Assembly (NCBI GenBank): GCA_965261085.1
Contig: OZ253442.1
Coordinates: 3,296,001 to 3,360,000, forward strand
DNA from: a bacterium
Lineage (GTDB): Bacteria > UBA8248
Length of the DNA: 64,000 bases
Direction: 5' to 3'
Both the position numbers and the translations under genes were made by a program. Under the pieces are notes generated by a model. The model had not been told where the DNA came from and ran no database searches. It saw nothing but the letters and a program-made list of their open reading frames with translations. This document shows positions 4,669 to 36,237 of this stretch, piece by piece; the stretch's first letter is position 1; each line of letters opens with the position of its first letter.

Positions 4669-7600
4669 TCACATGACCTCTTCCACCGACACCGACAGCG
4701 TGTAGGCGCCTTCCCAGGTTCCCCCGGCGCCGGCCGCCACATAGTAGGTCCCGGCATCGTCGGCAGTGAACTCCATCCGGCTGTTCCAGTCCGTGCCCCC
4801 GTCGTCGGCCGTCGTGCCGGGGAGGAGGTTGCCGTCCGCGTCGTGGAGCCCGCGCAGGTACGGGTCCCTCATGGTGCCGTGCCCTGTGTCATCGCCCTTG
4901 AGATCGATCCGGTAGATCTTGTCCGCCTCCAGGGTCACCGCGAACCAGTCTTGGTCGCCACCGGTCTCGATCTCGCCCATCACCGAACCGCCCACCGCCA
5001 CCGTGCCGTTCGTCCCGGTCCCGGCTTCGTAATCGTCCGGGACGCCGTCCGTGACATCCGTTACAAACAGCGTGTAGGTGCCTGCCTGGTATCCATTATA
5101 AGAGGATACATAACCGCCGGCCGCTACATAGTAGACGGCGTCCTCCTCTGGCGTGAACGTCACCCGACTGTTGTAGACGGCGCCACCATTGTTGTCCGTC
5201 GTGCCGGGGAGGAGGAGGCCGTCCGCGTCGTGGACCCCGCGCAGATACGGGTTGTACAGGGTGCCGCCCCCAGTCCACGAGCCCTCCAGGTCGATCCGGT
5301 AGGTCCTGCCCGCCTCCAGCGTCACCGCGAACCAGTCGCGGTCATCCTCGAAGTCGATCCTGCCCGTCTCCGAGCCGCCGACCTCCACCGCGCCGGCGGT
5401 GTCGGTCCCCGCCGCAAAATCGTCCGGGATTTCCGTCACCGACAGCGTGTAGGCGCCTTCCCAATCTGAATCAGAGCCGACTGCCACGTAGTAGGCGCCG
5501 GCCTCCTCCGCCGTGAAATACACCCGGCTGGTGACGTACCCCGTGCCGCCCTTGTTATCCTCCGTGCCGTCGATGAGGATGCCGTTCGCGTCGTGGATAC
5601 CGCGCACGTACGGGTCGTACAGGGTGGCAAACCTGTTCTCAAAGTCCAGCTTGATCCGGTAGATACCGCCCGCCTCCAGCGTCACCGCGAACCAGTCGCG
5701 GTCGCCGAAGATCTCGATATCGCCCGTCGCCGATCCGTCCACCTCCACCGCGCCGCTCGTCCCGGTTCCGGCCTCGAAATCATCCGGGTCGCCGTCCGTG
5801 GTATCCGTCACCGACAGGGTGTAGGTGCCTACCACGCGTCCATAGCCGCCGGCCGCCACATAGTAGGTGGCGTCCTCCTCCGCCGTGAAATACACCCGGC
5901 TGTTGTAGCCCGCACCTTCGCTGCCGTCCGTGATATCGACGATGAGTACCCCGTTCGCGTCGTAGATCCCTTGCATATCCGGAACGCTCAGGGTGCCGGC
6001 TGCGGTGAAGAAGCCCTCCAGGTCGATCCGGTAGGTCCTGCCCGCATCGAGCGTCACCGCGAACCAGTCGCGGTCGCCCGGGGACTCGATCTCGCCCGTC
6101 GTCGAGCCGCCCACCGCCACCGCGCCGGTCGTCCCGGTCCCCGCATCGAAATCGTCCCGGTACTCCGTCACCGACAGCGTGTAGGTTCCTTTCTCGTTTG
6201 CATAGCCACCGGCAGCCACGTAGTAGGTCCCGGTTTCATCCACCGTGATATACACCCGGCTGTTGCTGCCCGCGCCGCCGTCGTCGTTCGTCGTGCCGGC
6301 GAGGCGGTCGCCGTCCGCGTCGTGGATACCGCGCAGGTACGGGTCACTCAGGTTGCCGGCCCCGGTATCGTAGCCCTCCAGGTCGATCCGGTACCTCTTG
6401 CCCGCCTCCAGTTCCACCGCGAACCAGTCGCGGTCGTTCACGTGTTGGATCGTTCCCCTCGCCGAGCCGCCGACCGCAACCGCACCGGTCGTCCCGGTCC
6501 CCGCCGCAAAATCGTCCGTGTGGGTGTCCGTGACATCGGCCACCGACAGCCTGTAGGTGCCTTCCCTGGTTCCCCAGGCGCCGGCCGCCACGTAGTAGGT
6601 CCCGGTTTCATCCAGCGTGAGCGTCTGCCGGCTGTTGAGGCCGCGGCCGGAATCGTTGACCGTCGTGCCCACGATGAAGAAGTGGTCCTCGTTGTAGACC
6701 CCACGCAGGTACGGGTCCACCAAAGTGCCGGCCCCGGTCCACGAACCCTCGAGATCGATCCGGTATATCCGGCCCGCCTCCAGCTCGACCGCGAACCAGT
6801 CGCGGTCACCCGGGGTCCCGATCTTGCCTGTCGCAGTGTCGCCCACCGCAACCCGGCCGGTCGTGGAGGTGTCTTCCGGAAGGTCCTCGCCGTCCGGTTC
6901 GGACACACTAGCCTCCTGCTGAAGACTGACGTATTCCTCCACATCGGCCACGTCGGTGACGTTGACGGTCACGCTCACGTCGCTGTGCAGGCCGCCGTCG
7001 CTCGCCCGCACCGTCAGTTCGTAGCTCCTCGTCTCCGACTCGTAGTCCTCGCCCGCGCCCCGGTACGACAGGGCGCCCGTCCCCGGGTCGATGGCGAACA
7101 GGCCGTCGGGGTCGCCGGCCTCGATGCTGTAGGTAATCGTCGAGTTCTCAGGATCCGTCGCCTGTACCAGGCCGAGAGAAACAGGGATCGTGCCCCCGTC
7201 CGCGTTCTCCGCCAGTGAGAACGCATAGCTCGTCTCCGCGAACGCCGGCGCTTCGGCCACGTCGGTGACGTTGACGTTGACGGTCACGTCGCTGTGCAGG
7301 CCGCCGTCGCTCGCCCGCACCGTCAGCTCGTAGCTCCTCGTCCCCGACTCGTAGTCCTCGCCCGTGCCCAGATACACCACAAGGCCCGTCTCGGCGTCGA
7401 TCATGAACAGGCCATCGGGGTCGCCGGCCTCTATGCTGTAGGTTATCCTGTCGTTGTCCGGATCTGTCGCGACAACCGGTGCGACGGCGATGCCGAATAA
7501 GGCGCCGTCGGCATTCTCCGCCAGATCGAAGGCGTAGCTCGGCTGCGCGAACGCCGGCGCTTCGGCCACGTCGGTGACGTTGACGGTCACGGTCACGTCG

Positions 7601-31919: not shown

Positions 31920-32086
31920 CCGCCCGAAGCGGTTGCGCCCTACCTCAGGAGCCGAGCGGTTGGAAATTTGAGCCGACGCTTTTGGAGAGCTCTTTCTCAT
32001 TCTTTATGTACCTTGATTACCGGATTCATCCATTGTAGCATCGTGCGTAAGCCATTAATTCAACTGAATTATCCGTGATTATGCAC

Positions 32087-32115
32087 TTGACTAACCTTGG
32101 CCCAACATGTAGTGT
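32087..32115 (+). promoter_or_regulatory. Sigma70-like promoter using the left TIR (-35 TTGACT, 17 bp, -10 TAGTGT); would give a leaderless mRNA
   Basis: ATG 32122 lies 7 nt after the -10 box and has no RBS. Confidence 0.5.
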
Positions 32116-32121
32116 CGTGGC

Positions 32122-32586
32122 ATGTGGATACATATTCGCCTCACCCTCTGGTTTGGTTTTGCGTATGTTGTCGAAAGGGCGGCTGCCGTAATGTGGCCAG
32201 AAGCGTCCATTTCTACATGGCTGACATTAGCCGCCATGTTCGTCATTGTGATTATAGTCGGTAATTATTGGCAGAGCGTCTCGGAAAAATATACTTGGAA
32301 CTGGGGCCGTAAAGAACCGGATAATTTTTGGAACAACGTGGAGAAAGCAAATATCATCGCCAGAACAATCTATGCCGGAGAGAACTCTTTACTTCAATCA
32401 AGGCGAACGGAAACCATCCTTACCGCACAGGAGACGATAAATGACATCCGCCAGCAAATGTCGGTGAAAGGATATATGGATATGCCTGATCCGATTGACG
32501 TCGATCCTACGGGCAAGGATTGTTTGGTTGCCTTCAAGGCCTGGTACAAATACTTAAGTAAATTCCGAGCGAGACGAGGCCGATGA
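32122..32586 (+). CDS. Hypothetical protein with two N-terminal TM helices (IS passenger)
   Basis: 154-aa ORF in lower-GC DNA, two hydrophobic stretches then a soluble helical tail. Confidence 0.6.
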   Translation: MWIHIRLTLWFGFAYVVERAAAVMWPEASISTWLTLAAMFVIVIIVGNYWQSVSEKYTWNWGRKEPDNFWNNVEKANIIARTIYAGENSLLQSRRTETILTAQETINDIRQQMSVKGYMDMPDPIDVDPTGKDCLVAFKAWYKYLSKFRARRGR

Positions 32587-32624
32587 GAAAACGACCAATT
32601 CCCCATCGGCCTCGCCCTTCACGA

Positions 32625-33524
32625 TTACCGCCGCGCCCCAAACGCGCCTGCTACCTCGTCGCGGATGAATACGCCACCCACTTCTTCGTGATTCGGGCCA
32701 TAGAAGCGGCCCGTGAGCGAGTTGAAGCCATCACCCCGGTCTGCAAATGCAACGCCCACGGACAGATCGCCGTTATGGTCAAATGCTCCATTTCTCACGG
32801 GCATATTGCTCCAAGACATGCTGGCTCGCCTCTCGTTCGTCGTTTGGTCAACGAGATTCGTGAACGAGACGCTGGCCGATGGATTGCTGAAATTGCTGAT
32901 GCCGACCATGGCGTCGCCGATAATGACGTTGCCCTTGTCGTCCGTCTCGCTCGCATCGACACCAACGACGGCCCCGCGCCAAGTCGCGCTACCGGATATG
33001 GGGTTCGTGCCGGTCGCGTTTCCGACCGAGAATACGTCCGCGAAAACCTGCTCGGAAGGGTCGAGCGGATCATTGTCCATGGGATTCCATACGGCGAGAA
33101 GAAAGAAGCTGTGATCCATCCATCCGCCATAATCGAAGGCGTTTCCGGTGACGCCCCTGCTATGGGTTCCGGCCAGGGGGACTTCATGTCGGGTTTCGAG
33201 GCGTTGAAGGGCGCCGCCGCGCCGAGTCATGTCCGAGAGGTCAAGGTTCGTGGGAGTGGGCTGGGTTATTCTGGTGCTCCAGATATCCGCATTGATCGTG
33301 TTGGATTTGATCACGACGGTGGAAGCGTCGATCAGGCCATTCATGATTTCTCTCACCGCCCGAGGTTCAGGAGCAGGAGCGACTGGTGGTTGCTGTGGAG
33401 GCTCTCCGCCACCGGGCATTACCGGTGGAGTGGCTGGAACAGGAACACTCGATTTCTTGCCTCCACCACCACAACCTGCAATCAGAATTGCTACGAAGAG
33501 GCTCAGTACGATGTTCTTGATCAT
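32625..33524 (-). CDS. Surface lipoprotein with TbpB/HpuA-like C-terminal beta-barrel (IS passenger)
   Basis: Signal peptide II MIKNIVLSLFVAILIAG-C, Gly/Pro linker, GSATWRG, GRFYGPNHEEVGGVF...GAFGARR; RBS GAGGTG before ATG 33524. Confidence 0.8.
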   Translation of the reverse strand: MIKNIVLSLFVAILIAGCGGGGKKSSVPVPATPPVMPGGGEPPQQPPVAPAPEPRAVREIMNGLIDASTVVIKSNTINADIWSTRITQPTPTNLDLSDMTRRGGALQRLETRHEVPLAGTHSRGVTGNAFDYGGWMDHSFFLLAVWNPMDNDPLDPSEQVFADVFSVGNATGTNPISGSATWRGAVVGVDASETDDKGNVIIGDAMVGISNFSNPSASVSFTNLVDQTTNERRASMSWSNMPVRNGAFDHNGDLSVGVAFADRGDGFNSLTGRFYGPNHEEVGGVFIRDEVAGAFGARR

Positions 33525-33577
33525 GGAAGTATCCACCTCTATGGCGATATCCCGACCTCCCAGCGAGGCCGGGCCTT

Positions 33578-33709
33578 ATCACCATCACAGAGAAAAGTGA
33601 AGTCCCGCCTATTCACCTTTTGTCCGGGTAGCGAACCCGGAATCGGTGCAAGGCTGTTGTATTCAGCGAGCGACCCGACTCAGAAAGCAGGTCCCTCTGC
33701 GATGGTGAT
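33578..33709 (-). ncRNA. Candidate multi-stem structured RNA / 5' leader upstream of the lipoprotein
   Basis: 15-bp closing stem (33578-33592 with 33695-33709) enclosing three hairpins; irregular pairs are G-U only on the minus strand; promoter-like motif just upstream. Confidence 0.55.
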
Positions 33710-33715
33710 GAATGG

Positions 33716-33745
33716 AGTGTGCCGCGTTTTATCCGGTAACGTCAA
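33716..33745 (-). promoter_or_regulatory. Sigma70-like promoter (TTGACG-N18-CACACT) for the structured RNA and lipoprotein
   Basis: Predicted +1 falls near 33709, the first base of the closing stem. Confidence 0.4.
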
Positions 33746-34005
33746 GGAGAATGTTCAAAAAGGGGTGTTCAAATATATATTCAATGGGTGGCCCCACCCG
33801 CACCACTTCTGGGGAGAAATGGTGATTCCTGGCGAGTGGGGCCACCTATCAGATTCTTTGCTGCGGCTACAATGGGGTCATCGCGCCTCATTCACATCAC
33901 CCCCTCTCGGATCGGGCGGGATAGACGCACTTTCCCTGCTTGACAAAGGTGCTCGGTATTTTGTAGGGTGGGGTTATTCGGATTTTTCACCCTTCAAGTC
34001 CCGAG

Positions 34006-34035
34006 CCGCCAGCGCCAACTGGCGGTTTACCTTTT
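34006..34035 (+). terminator. Intrinsic terminator-like hairpin just beyond the transposase stop
   Basis: ccgccag-cgccaa-ctggcgg followed by tttacctttt. Confidence 0.55.
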
Positions 34036-34043
34036 CTGGCAGT

Positions 34044-34931
34044 CTACGCTACCAGCTTCTTGTACTCAAGAGGTTTCGTGTTCACGATTCGCTTGAGCGT
34101 GTCGTTGAAAATGTAGTGGTTCTTGCGGTTGTTGTATCGCCATTCAAGCTCATCGAGATAGCGATCCATGTGCTTGACGCTCATCTTGTGGAACGCGCCC
34201 GTGAGCGAACGCTTGAACAGCGACCACACGCCCTCGATGCTGTTCGTATGGACATCACCCACGACCCATTCTTCCTCGGAGTGGTTCACGGTTTCATGGC
34301 GCGTGTCGCTGTCCTCAATGCCGATATAGGATTTGAGTTCATCCGTGTAAATGGCTTCGGCCTCATCCCGGATGGTGCGCTGGATGAAGTCGTGGAGCGT
34401 GTTCTTCTTGATGTTCGGAATTCGCTCAAGACGCACCTTGCCGCCGCGCTGGATGGCTCCCGCGACCCATTGCTTGTTCTTCTTGTAGCCCTTGCCTTTG
34501 CCCTTCGCCTTGCCGCCCACGAGCGTTTCATCGACTTCCACGACGCCCACAAGGGTGGGGCCGGAAAAAGGCTCGTTTCCCATGGCCTCGCGGATGCGGT
34601 GGCACAGGTACCACGCCGTGCGATAGGCCACGCCAAGCGTTCTCTGCATCTGGCAAGCGGAGATACCCTTCTTGGATTCACACATGAGATAGATGGCGAG
34701 AAACCACTTACGCAGGGGCAGGTGGGAATCATGCATAATGGTGCCCGATGTAACGCTGAACTGGTAATCACAGGACTTACACTTCCAGCGGTTGTGTTTT
34801 TCCAAATCCAGCACGTCCATATCGCCGCACCTGGTGCAACACACACCCGCAGGCCAGCGAATATCCTGCAACATCTTGCGGCAGGTATCATCGCAGTTGA
34901 ACTTATCAATCAAGTGCATGAGGTTCACCAT
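34044..34931 (-). CDS. IS1595-family (ISXO2-like) DDE transposase
   Basis: Zn ribbon CTRC..CKSC, FSVTSGT, HTH region, VEVDET, IYTDE, HETVNH, HTNSIEGVWS.FKR, YLDE..WRYN; RBS AGGAGG. Confidence 0.96.
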   Translation of the reverse strand: MVNLMHLIDKFNCDDTCRKMLQDIRWPAGVCCTRCGDMDVLDLEKHNRWKCKSCDYQFSVTSGTIMHDSHLPLRKWFLAIYLMCESKKGISACQMQRTLGVAYRTAWYLCHRIREAMGNEPFSGPTLVGVVEVDETLVGGKAKGKGKGYKKNKQWVAGAIQRGGKVRLERIPNIKKNTLHDFIQRTIRDEAEAIYTDELKSYIGIEDSDTRHETVNHSEEEWVVGDVHTNSIEGVWSLFKRSLTGAFHKMSVKHMDRYLDELEWRYNNRKNHYIFNDTLKRIVNTKPLEYKKLVA

Positions 34932-35097
34932 GGCTCAAAAGCCTCCTGGTAAGGGAAAACTCCCGAAGGACGCGCTCAAGCGGCCTGGGCGCGAACTCAT
35001 GGAGCATATATTCGGAACCACGATCATGAAAGAGGTGGACAAACTGACGCCCGACAAATCAAAAGACGATGAAAGTGATGATGAGGTATCCATATGA
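34930..35097 (+). CDS. 55-aa small protein divergent from, and sharing CATG with, the transposase
   Basis: GAGG RBS at 34920-34923, ATG 34930, MAQKPPGKGKLPKDALKRPGRELMEHIFGTTIMKEVDKL...; ends just inside the right TIR. Confidence 0.5.
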   Translation: MAQKPPGKGKLPKDALKRPGRELMEHIFGTTIMKEVDKLTPDKSKDDESDDEVSI

Positions 35098-35100
35098 GGA

Positions 35101-35129
35101 AATATACATCTTGTGGCTCAGTTTGTCAA
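35101..35129 (-). promoter_or_regulatory. Near-consensus inward sigma70 promoter in the right TIR (TTGACA-N17-TATATT) facing the transposase
   Basis: Read directly from the minus strand, 35129 to 35101. Confidence 0.7.
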
Positions 35130-35253
35130 GTGCATAATCGCGGAATTATCTGCTTGTTCCTTGAACGCTGCGCAGAGGGGGGAAAGCCTTGAAGTTTCTT
35201 CCCGTTTTAGAGGGTATTTGTCCCATCGGCGCTCATGAATAGGGGGAGTTGAA

Positions 35254-36237
35254 ATGAAGAAATTCCTTATGCTCGCGGCGATTTCAGCAACGGTGTTCTT
35301 GTTTTCATCTGAGGCGTACGCGGCATACAACATCAGGTTGTCCACGAATCGAAGCCCTCAGGCGGTCGTAAATGAAGTGGCGGAACAGAGGGGGTTTTTC
35401 AAGGAGCAGGGGGTCAACGTCAAGGTCTTCGCGGAGAGTTCGGGGAGCGCTTCCCTGCAGGCCGTCGTAGGCGGTTCCGCCGAAATGGGCGTCGGTCTGC
35501 ATGTTCGCGTCCTTCAGGGGCTCGCCAAAAAGCTCCCTCTCTGCGTCATCGGAATGGTCCAATACGGCCTCACTTCCAAAATCGTCGTTCCGGTCCGGGA
35601 CAAGACGTCCAAGTCGCTGGCGGATCTCAAAGGCAAGCGCCTGGCGGTCCAGATGGGATCGGGCACCTACACGGCCTGGCGGATTCTGCTCAAATACCAG
35701 GGGTTGAAGGAAAAGGATTTCGTCCTCAAGAACATGAAGACGAGGCTCATCCCCGCCACGTTCGAGTCCGGCTCGATCGACGTCGCCGTGGCGTGGGAAC
35801 CCTATGCCTCGATCCTGGTCTCCAAGGGGCTCGCTCGCGTCCTGGTTTCCAACGAAAAGTGGTCGAAGCTGGGAAAGATTGTGTATCCCGTTTTTCTGTA
35901 CGCCAATTGCGGCTGGGTGAAAAAGAACAAAGAAGCCACCCAGCGATTCGTGAACGCCTGGCTCAAGGCGATTAAATTCATCAACTCCAACCCCGAGGAA
36001 TCGGTCGACATCCTGGCAAAAGCCTATAAGGGATGGGGGCTGAAAATTCCGAGAGCCAAGATCAAGGCGGGCATCTATGTCGCCGATTATGACAAGCTGA
36101 CGGTTGACGACGACGTCATGAACGACGTCAACAATTTCGCGCAGATCATGCACGAAATAAAAAAGATCAAGTTCATTCCCGATTTCAAGAAAGCACTGAT
36201 GCTTGAATTCACCAACAAGGCGCTTTCGAAAAATTAG
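35254..36237 (+). CDS. ABC transporter substrate-binding protein, NitT/TauT (SsuA-like)
   Basis: Signal peptide, GFFKEQGVNV, SLADLKGKRLAV..GS, G.IDVAVAWEP; adjacent ATPase and permease. Confidence 0.9.
   Translation: MKKFLMLAAISATVFLFSSEAYAAYNIRLSTNRSPQAVVNEVAEQRGFFKEQGVNVKVFAESSGSASLQAVVGGSAEMGVGLHVRVLQGLAKKLPLCVIGMVQYGLTSKIVVPVRDKTSKSLADLKGKRLAVQMGSGTYTAWRILLKYQGLKEKDFVLKNMKTRLIPATFESGSIDVAVAWEPYASILVSKGLARVLVSNEKWSKLGKIVYPVFLYANCGWVKKNKEATQRFVNAWLKAIKFINSNPEESVDILAKAYKGWGLKIPRAKIKAGIYVADYDKLTVDDDVMNDVNNFAQIMHEIKKIKFIPDFKKALMLEFTNKALSKN

Follow-up and report, generated by a model that had tools for sequence, protein, structure and literature searches.

What is the long inverted repeat that lies ahead of a putative lipoprotein gene in this bacterial genome, and what might it do for that gene? 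The window analyzed here is a stretch of 64,000 nucleotides (contig OZ253442.1, positions 3,296,001 to 3,360,000), and coordinates are those of the window. An earlier note on this DNA had proposed a novel multi-stem RNA inside an IS1595 element, closed by a 15-bp stem and comprising about 132 nt. The stem is as described: its two 15-nt arms (P1 in Table 1) close a unit of 132 nt and are 93% complementary as DNA, with a lone mismatch that becomes a G-U pair on the minus strand. The enclosing 206 nt (33540 to 33745) has a predicted minimum free energy of −83.6 kcal/mol on the minus strand (z = −4.65), equaled by none of 200 shuffled controls; the plus strand gives z = −3.38.

Table 1. Features of the RNA, its downstream gene, and the surrounding element (positions within the window)
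Feature	Position	Strand	Details and evidence
IS1595-family transposon, 3,069 bp: transposase gene, RNA-led lipoprotein gene, and 154-aa ORF	32074-35142	minus	Inverted repeats, direct repeat, empty site
Target-site duplication GAATTATC, left copy	32066-32073	.	Single copy aligned in G012
Target-site duplication GAATTATC, right copy	35143-35150	.	Reverse complement of minus-strand GATAATTC
Left terminal inverted repeat, with inward-facing TTGAC box	32072-32111	plus	40 nt, 80% complementary to 35105-35144
Right terminal inverted repeat, with TTGACA box upstream of transposase gene	35105-35144	minus	Homology with paralogue L003 starts here
IS1595-family transposase gene, 295 aa	34044-34931	minus	PF12762 (E = 1.3e-37), PF12760; NF033547, 213.6 bits (cut-off, 75)
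Second passenger ORF, 154 aa, hydrophobic	32122-32586	plus	Abuts left inverted repeat, whose TTGAC box faces the ORF
Lipoprotein gene, 299 aa from ATG, signal peptide ending in lipobox LIAGC	32625-33524	minus	TbpB_B_D (E = 3e-6)
Promoter-like TTGACG-N18-CACACT	33716-33745	minus	TTGACG 33745-33740, CACACT 33721-33716; TTGAC aligned in 7/13 genus sequences
P1 5' strand	33695-33709	minus	Inner end AGAGG, RBS-like (putative anti-anti-SD); 16/16 P1 pairs covary
P2 (CCUG/CGGG, within 33691-33674) and invariant GUCGGGUC box	33672-33691	minus	Model R1; 92.6% of cells paired, one-sided changes only
Conserved core (P3, internal loop, P4, and P5)	33604-33670	minus	Covariation alignment
P3	CUCGCU 33670-33665 / GGCGGG 33609-33604	minus	97.6% paired
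Internal loop GAAUACAACA/GAAUA	Between P3 and P4 (33664-33655 and 33614-33610)	minus	Asymmetric, conserved
P4, GCC/GGU		minus	Every pair with compensatory changes
P5 hairpin	33640-33624	minus	Every pair with compensatory changes
P1 3' strand, doubling as putative anti-SD	33578-33592	minus	Inverted repeat and downstream complementarity
Conserved GGCCCGGC box and tail hairpin P6 (33573-33551)	33551-33575	minus	Helix 7, 91.3% paired
P1 5'-strand mimic AUCGCCAUAGAGG (33548-33536) overlapping RBS GAGGUGGA	33532-33548	minus	Predicted to pair with P1 3' strand once P1 5' strand is blocked

Related stretches were found by BLASTN in 14 of 61 related genomes, and in a MAFFT alignment the sequence of the stem varies while its pairing is kept, around a near-invariant core. 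A model, R1, was built from 11 sequences of the genus (L028, which is without the 3' strand, and L023 were omitted). R1 matches 20 of 23 genus genomes, with up to 9 copies per genome; across the phylum it matches 20 of 51 genomes, with hits in 17 of 22 other genomes of the genus, in none of 19 from other genera of the family, and in 2 of 7 from a second family. The RNA comes in two forms, a long one to which the window copy belongs and a short one of ∼130 nt that is without P5; two short copies lie elsewhere in the window's own genome (G000:C1:1311251 and 3369663). Beyond the phylum, a degenerate core pattern searched against the species genome collection matches at least 119 loci. Judged by their record titles, the matches listed include Acidobacteria, Nitrospirales, Nitrospinaceae, Alpha- and Gammaproteobacteria, Rhodothermales, Longimicrobiales, and Acidimicrobiia, mostly as metagenome-assembled genomes (MAGs) and with one cultured Ruegeria. 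A culturable carrier is Ruegeria atlantica HKCCD9103, with a copy in locus L111.

An R1 search covering 100 of these loci gave 101 matches; the 19 omitted were same-genus records, near-identical repeats of one genome, one duplicate, and five more. In the 101-copy alignment, which was fitted to R1 and hence favors the model, 93.1% of cells are paired versus 68.4% in shuffles, and 34 of the 42 pairs show compensatory changes; independent MAFFT alignments give the same stems. The covariation score is 0.58, against 0.17 in shuffles, with none of 500 shuffles as high, and sliding the partners by one to three columns leaves at most 0.077. Among 1,467 cells of P1 pairs, 133 are G-U and 17 are A-C, an excess that marks the folded strand as sense with respect to the downstream gene. 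At its base, P1 tends to read GCAAC/GUUGC. Homologues with compensatory changes are thus abundant, and this very strong covariation leads us to conclude that the stem-loop is a genuine structured RNA and is strongly conserved.

The interior of the fold differs in part from the one first drawn. Three inner hairpins had been proposed, and the comparison supports one of them, CCGGG/CCCGG, which is paired in 92.7% of cells with two compensatory pairs among the 11 genus sequences. The other two did not hold up, with pairing in 57.6% of cells for AGUCGG/CCGAUU and in 65.3% for AAAGGUGAA/UUCACUUUU. Likewise, the GCUG/CAGC pairing can form in 86% of cells without covariation, and the comparison places it in the conserved internal loop. 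The resemblance of the CCGGG/CCCGG hairpin to a tRNA T arm also falls away, since the loop in homologues reads G-UMGCU-C, short-form copies do without the hairpin, and ARAGORN detects no tRNA. The idea of a tRNA-like RNA goes with it: ARAGORN predicted no tRNA gene between 32000 and 35200, and no tRNA was matched in Rfam.

Several further elements of structure were considered. A nested helix, GUCGGG-YYCAC, proposed by RNAalifold from 12 genus sequences, is not general in the wider family and was rejected. The GYCGGG box (33679 to 33672) and the CCCGRC box (33575 to 33568) are both present in the window and could form six pairs in 96.4% of cells, with no covariation and with two of eight column assignments one off; such a helix would clash with P1. 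A K-turn or loop-E reading of the internal loop was also set aside, as comparison by eye revealed no likeness to the consensus motifs.

On novelty, the earlier claim stands as far as Rfam thresholds reach: no family reaches threshold on the window, and the microRNA and snoRNA rows obtained for 32500 to 35500 (E values of 1.8 to 7.3) are chance matches. It needs qualification in that the core resembles, below threshold, sRNA-Xcc1 (RF02221). BLASTN with an alphaproteobacterial copy gave no match in E. coli genomes and plasmids. We found no prior description of the family in the literature, although supplementary motif lists outside our reach may hold one. The RNA would then belong to a large, widespread, and apparently undescribed family that is distantly akin to sRNA-Xcc1.

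The genetic setting of the RNA could be delimited closely. The terminal inverted repeats are the best inverted pair of the region (local alignment score of 48, against a shuffle maximum of 32), and just outside them is a perfect 8-bp direct repeat, the length of target-site duplication that is typical of the IS1595 family. In the congener G012 only 122 nt separate the same flanks, compared with 3,230 nt here, and the target occurs as a single copy. Together, the inverted repeats, the 8-bp repeat, and this empty site define the element as 32074 to 35142. Its transposase has the DDE_Tnp_IS1595 domain with a zinc ribbon, and the earlier placement of the RNA inside an IS1595 element is therefore confirmed. 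In its DDE transposase with N-terminal zinc ribbon, its inverted repeats, its 8-bp duplication, and its extra genes, the element resembles known IS1595 insertion sequences that carry passenger genes; our literature search found no structured RNA described for that family. The 154-aa passenger ORF has no Pfam or NCBIfam match.

We next consider whether this association is peculiar to the window. All three RNA copies of the window's genome lie within ∼1.5 kb of an IS1595 transposase gene, and such a gene is present in 5 of 30 genus loci and in 29 of the at least 119 pattern loci (∼8 kb each); in 24 of these 29, as read from the table of loci, the RNA cassette lies 3' of the transposase gene. An inverted-repeat test was applied to 17 of the 29 loci, after removal of nine with partial transposase matches, two without the N terminus, and one at a contig edge. 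The best inverted repeat exceeded all 40 shuffles in 11 of the 17 loci, and nine of these 11 loci have the RNA enclosed by the repeats, within elements of 2.0 to 4.2 kb (L134 is counted via its second copy). Paralogues of the transposase gene in the window's genome have only the ORF in common with the window element, and in genome G061 the RNA is absent from a recurring 1.36-kb transposase unit, whose far end reappears, inverted, as the left edge of the RNA module. These comparisons indicate that the RNA rides as cargo in IS1595 transposons and that the link is general.

Other arrangements were seen along the way. In L093 (∼6586 to 6609), an IS1595 copy of 1.26 kb stops at the 5' edge of the RNA, placing the insertion sequence beside the cassette and not around it. 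The whole 3,354-bp contig L064 (1 to 3354) is bounded by 23-nt inverted repeats and contains a transposase gene, the RNA, and a secreted-protein gene, and with repeats at both contig ends and these contents it looks like one complete element assembled alone. G061 also has a 256-bp, MITE-like repeat (L149, 858 to 1113) with at least 27 full-length copies, nearly all of them 100% identical; in one case a copy interrupts the lipoprotein gene behind the RNA. Within the window element, a further hairpin (33784 to 33849, minus strand), with 18-nt arms that are 89% complementary, separates the transposase stop from the RNA promoter and may shield the cassette from read-through. A 54-aa ORF (MAQKPPGKG..., 34933 to 35097, plus strand) is divergent from and overlaps the transposase start; the region around its start is conserved in L003, its opening residues are similar to the N termini of other IS1595 transposases although it lies on the opposite strand, and it has no family match. 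A 789-aa open frame (32583 to 34952, plus strand), antisense to the lipoprotein gene, the RNA, and the transposase gene, is probably an artifact of GC-rich antisense sequence. Finally, a conserved ORF of ∼48 aa (MTEEKKPRGRP...) lies 1 to 2 kb downstream of three IS1595 paralogues (G000:C1 ∼1312643 to 1312812, near 1002745, and 651600).

The gene led by the RNA is, as the earlier note held, that of a surface lipoprotein candidate: the protein has a TbpB_B_D tail, and against the slam_lipo model it scores 27.2 bits, under the cut-off of 80. Its ATG lies 54 nt past the stem, matching the ∼55 nt first estimated, and is preceded by GAGGTGGA. For the wider family, downstream ORFs were accepted if they had a ribosome-binding site (RBS), at least 70 codons' worth of product (≥70 aa), and a start 45 to 135 nt after the core on the same strand. 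This yielded 57 distinct ORFs among the pattern loci listed, of which 50 encode a hydrophobic N terminus and 16 a lipobox-like motif. Pfam searches of 58 proteins (these 57 and that of the window) found TbpB_B_D in four, SNase in three, and CsgG, OMP_b-brl, and Surface_Ag_2 in two each; single matches include RTX, Sel1, PEGA, collagen, and trypsin. The cargo is mixed, yet judging from these predictions it consists almost entirely of exported proteins. One lipoprotein, in a Nitrospinaceae MAG (L090, 2793 to 3644), is 63% identical to that of the window and stands behind a short-form RNA.

What could such an RNA do? The P1 3' strand is complementary to the RBS region and nearly all the downstream genes encode exported proteins, and we accordingly read the RNA as a candidate translational switch acting in cis. 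Transcription would start a few bases ahead of the stem. Of the promoter previously suggested for this position, the TTGACG-N18-CACACT motif stands, with its alignment among genus sequences, but a consensus promoter scan made no call of the −10 box. The leader would fold with the long P1 closing around P2, P3, the internal loop, P4, and P5. With P1 formed, the RBS would be free; with P1 open, the P1 3' strand could pair with the RBS and hide it. The result would be a three-strand switch of anti-anti-SD, anti-SD, and SD, in which the conserved core may serve as the sensor that tips the balance between the two pairings. Because the same device appears to work in many phyla, a universal signal seems likelier than a host-specific protein, with a small molecule, an ion, temperature, and the ribosome itself as candidates.

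Several computations bear on this proposal. The P1 3' strand pairs with its own downstream region at −13.7 kcal/mol and with those of other copies at −11.9 kcal/mol, a modest difference that none of 2,000 permutations matched, with p-values overstated because the copies are related. For this strand the own pair ranked in the top 5% in 19 of 91 copies; the P1 5' strand, used as a control, did so in 4 of 91, with no excess. In strong cases with a called start codon (n = 34), the complementary stretch stops short of that codon by a median of 5.5 nt. In the window RNA, blocking the P1 5' strand, the sole stretch blocked, lowered the predicted unpaired probability of the RBS from 0.35 to 0.06. Across 75 copies, blocking lowered the mean from 0.43 to 0.25, with a fall in 59 and the opposite trend in 16. 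A run of at least five T residues precedes the start codon in only 9 of the 75, so control of translation is likelier than control of termination. The P1 state, with 15 to 16 bp, is ∼10 to 13 kcal/mol more stable than the alternative, and on energy alone the switch would stay on. We give a probability of roughly 0.55 to the reading that the RNA is the 5' leader of an IS1595 passenger gene and acts in cis on its translation. A cis-regulatory leader had also been among the possibilities first raised. Like translational riboswitches and RNA thermometers, the RNA is a predicted 5' leader with a conserved fold and an alternative pairing over the RBS; it differs from them in its unusually long closing helix and in matching no known Rfam class.

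A special case of this cis-acting leader is a riboswitch in the strict sense, in which the core with its GAAUACAACA/GAAUA loop would bind a small molecule or ion and thereby stabilize P1. Two hallmarks of riboswitches are in place, a conserved covarying fold ahead of ORFs as a predicted 5' leader and, in the computed folds, an expression platform with mutually exclusive pairings over the RBS. The near-invariant core within covarying helices, the presence of the device in many phyla, and the occurrence of up to 9 copies in a genome ahead of diverse envelope genes are all in keeping with ligand binding, and multiple copies per genome ahead of diverse genes are known for second-messenger riboswitches. 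Against these points, the downstream gene set is very mixed and indicates no ligand or metabolite, and P1 is far longer than the usual switching helices of riboswitches. We regard this narrower reading as possible, if somewhat unlikely.

Alternatively, the RNA could be a fixed 5' untranslated module that does not switch, but insulates and stabilizes the cargo mRNA and keeps the RBS open wherever the transposon lands. The strong energetic preference for the P1 state would suit such a module, as would the fact that the RNA travels with transposon cargo, for which context-independent expression would presumably be needed. A simple insulator, however, needs neither a 60-nt near-invariant core nor a downstream sequence that mimics the P1 5' strand and covaries with P1, and we consider this explanation unlikely.

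The closest Rfam family is sRNA-Xcc1 (RF02221), at sub-threshold scores, and comparison with it bears on a further alternative. At E values of up to 10, RF02221 gave no match in the window between 32500 and 35500 or in the whole genome. Alphaproteobacterial copies of the RNA scored 33.7 and 31.8 bits, and five carrier genomes ranged from 22.7 to 33.7 bits, none of the five reaching the cut-off of 53. We sought true members in 151 Gammaproteobacteria; 13 genomes matched, 9 of them over the cut-off. The unpublished G105 and G207 entered these tallies and no other analysis. R1 in turn finds 1 of 17 true RF02221 members, at 19.3 bits. An alignment of L079 to the RF02221 model reveals the same core hairpin with an AAUACAA/GAAUA loop, as well as the GYCGGG box and, just ahead of ACC, the CCCGRC box. 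Both families lie 30 to 50 nt ahead of an ORF (30 to 49 nt for RF02221 members), and in both, the sequence that follows the core has complementarity to an upstream strand as well as to the RBS region; for the RF02221 loci, none of 5,000 permutations equaled either complementarity. True RF02221 loci (L189 to L208) have a terminator-like hairpin and T run between the upstream complementary strand and the mapped RNA, and that strand may hence exist only in read-through transcripts.

The families differ in other respects. That of the window adds the 16-bp P1, formed by a 5' extension, the tail hairpin P6, and usually the hairpin P5. It precedes genes for exported proteins, whereas RF02221 precedes those for SymE, KilA-N, and P22_AR_N proteins (2, 1, and 1 of 10 downstream proteins, the other 6 being without family), and no IS1595 transposase gene occurs in the 17 RF02221 loci. 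Both reside on mobile DNA: published accounts place sRNA-Xcc1 ahead of symE in the Xanthomonas integron cassette of widest distribution (10.1101/2025.06.18.660453) and ahead of an ORF6N gene in certain APSE phages (10.1101/2020.03.17.996009), and mention seven homologues in Xylella (PMC12189769). The APSE-1 phage record gave no RF02221 match. From these sequence comparisons we conclude that the window family and sRNA-Xcc1 have core and logic in common and are not one Rfam family.

The title of Chen 2011 reportedly presents sRNA-Xcc1 as a trans-acting sRNA, and the RNA of the window might by analogy be one, released by termination or processing. PMC2996969 describes sRNA-Xcc1 as an 88-nt RNA on Northern blots and as a ∼100-nt band with mapped ends, and the third copy in the window's genome does have a hairpin and T run directly after it. 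The copy in the window has no T run between its tail and the ORF, in line with the scarcity of such runs in the family (9 of 75 copies); P1 varies freely, so that no conserved seed is evident in it; and the position directly ahead of an ORF is constant. A trans-acting role is, on this balance, quite improbable. Most improbable of all is a DNA-level site, an attC-like hairpin or transposase-binding repeat with P1 as an inverted repeat and not an RNA stem: although stems covary while sequence varies in attC sites as they do here, the base of P1 tends to a common sequence, and sRNA-Xcc1 occurs in integron cassettes according to 10.1101/2025.06.18.660453, the copies are scattered and form no arrays, G-U exceeds A-C on the sense strand (133 versus 17), the inner region is conserved with covarying helices of its own, and the element's true inverted repeats lie elsewhere (32072 to 32111 and 35105 to 35144). 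An integron attC site in particular was rejected on the first two of these grounds, scattered copies and G-U pairs on the sense strand.

The cis-acting leader therefore remains our preferred reading. The findings also matter beyond this locus. A large structured RNA family, with at least 119 loci in many phyla, is not captured by the current Rfam library, and a DDE transposon family is linked, apparently for the first time, to a conserved RNA device. The transposon would carry not only cargo genes but also their own regulator, which must work in very different hosts. The comparison also suggests that sRNA-Xcc1 is itself a cis-acting leader with the same three-strand logic. A bolder and rather doubtful extension is that the RNA is a portable riboswitch for a universal signal, spread by IS1595 across at least 8 phyla and switching on surface and secreted cargo, largely in MAGs whose record names suggest marine hosts, and that sRNA-Xcc1, for 15 years filed as a trans-acting sRNA, represents a short version of this sensor and acts as the leader of toxin and phage genes. 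If the core does bind a ligand, the family would be an orphan riboswitch class, and its regulon of lipoproteins, nucleases, CsgG-like proteins, and porins would point to control of the cell surface.
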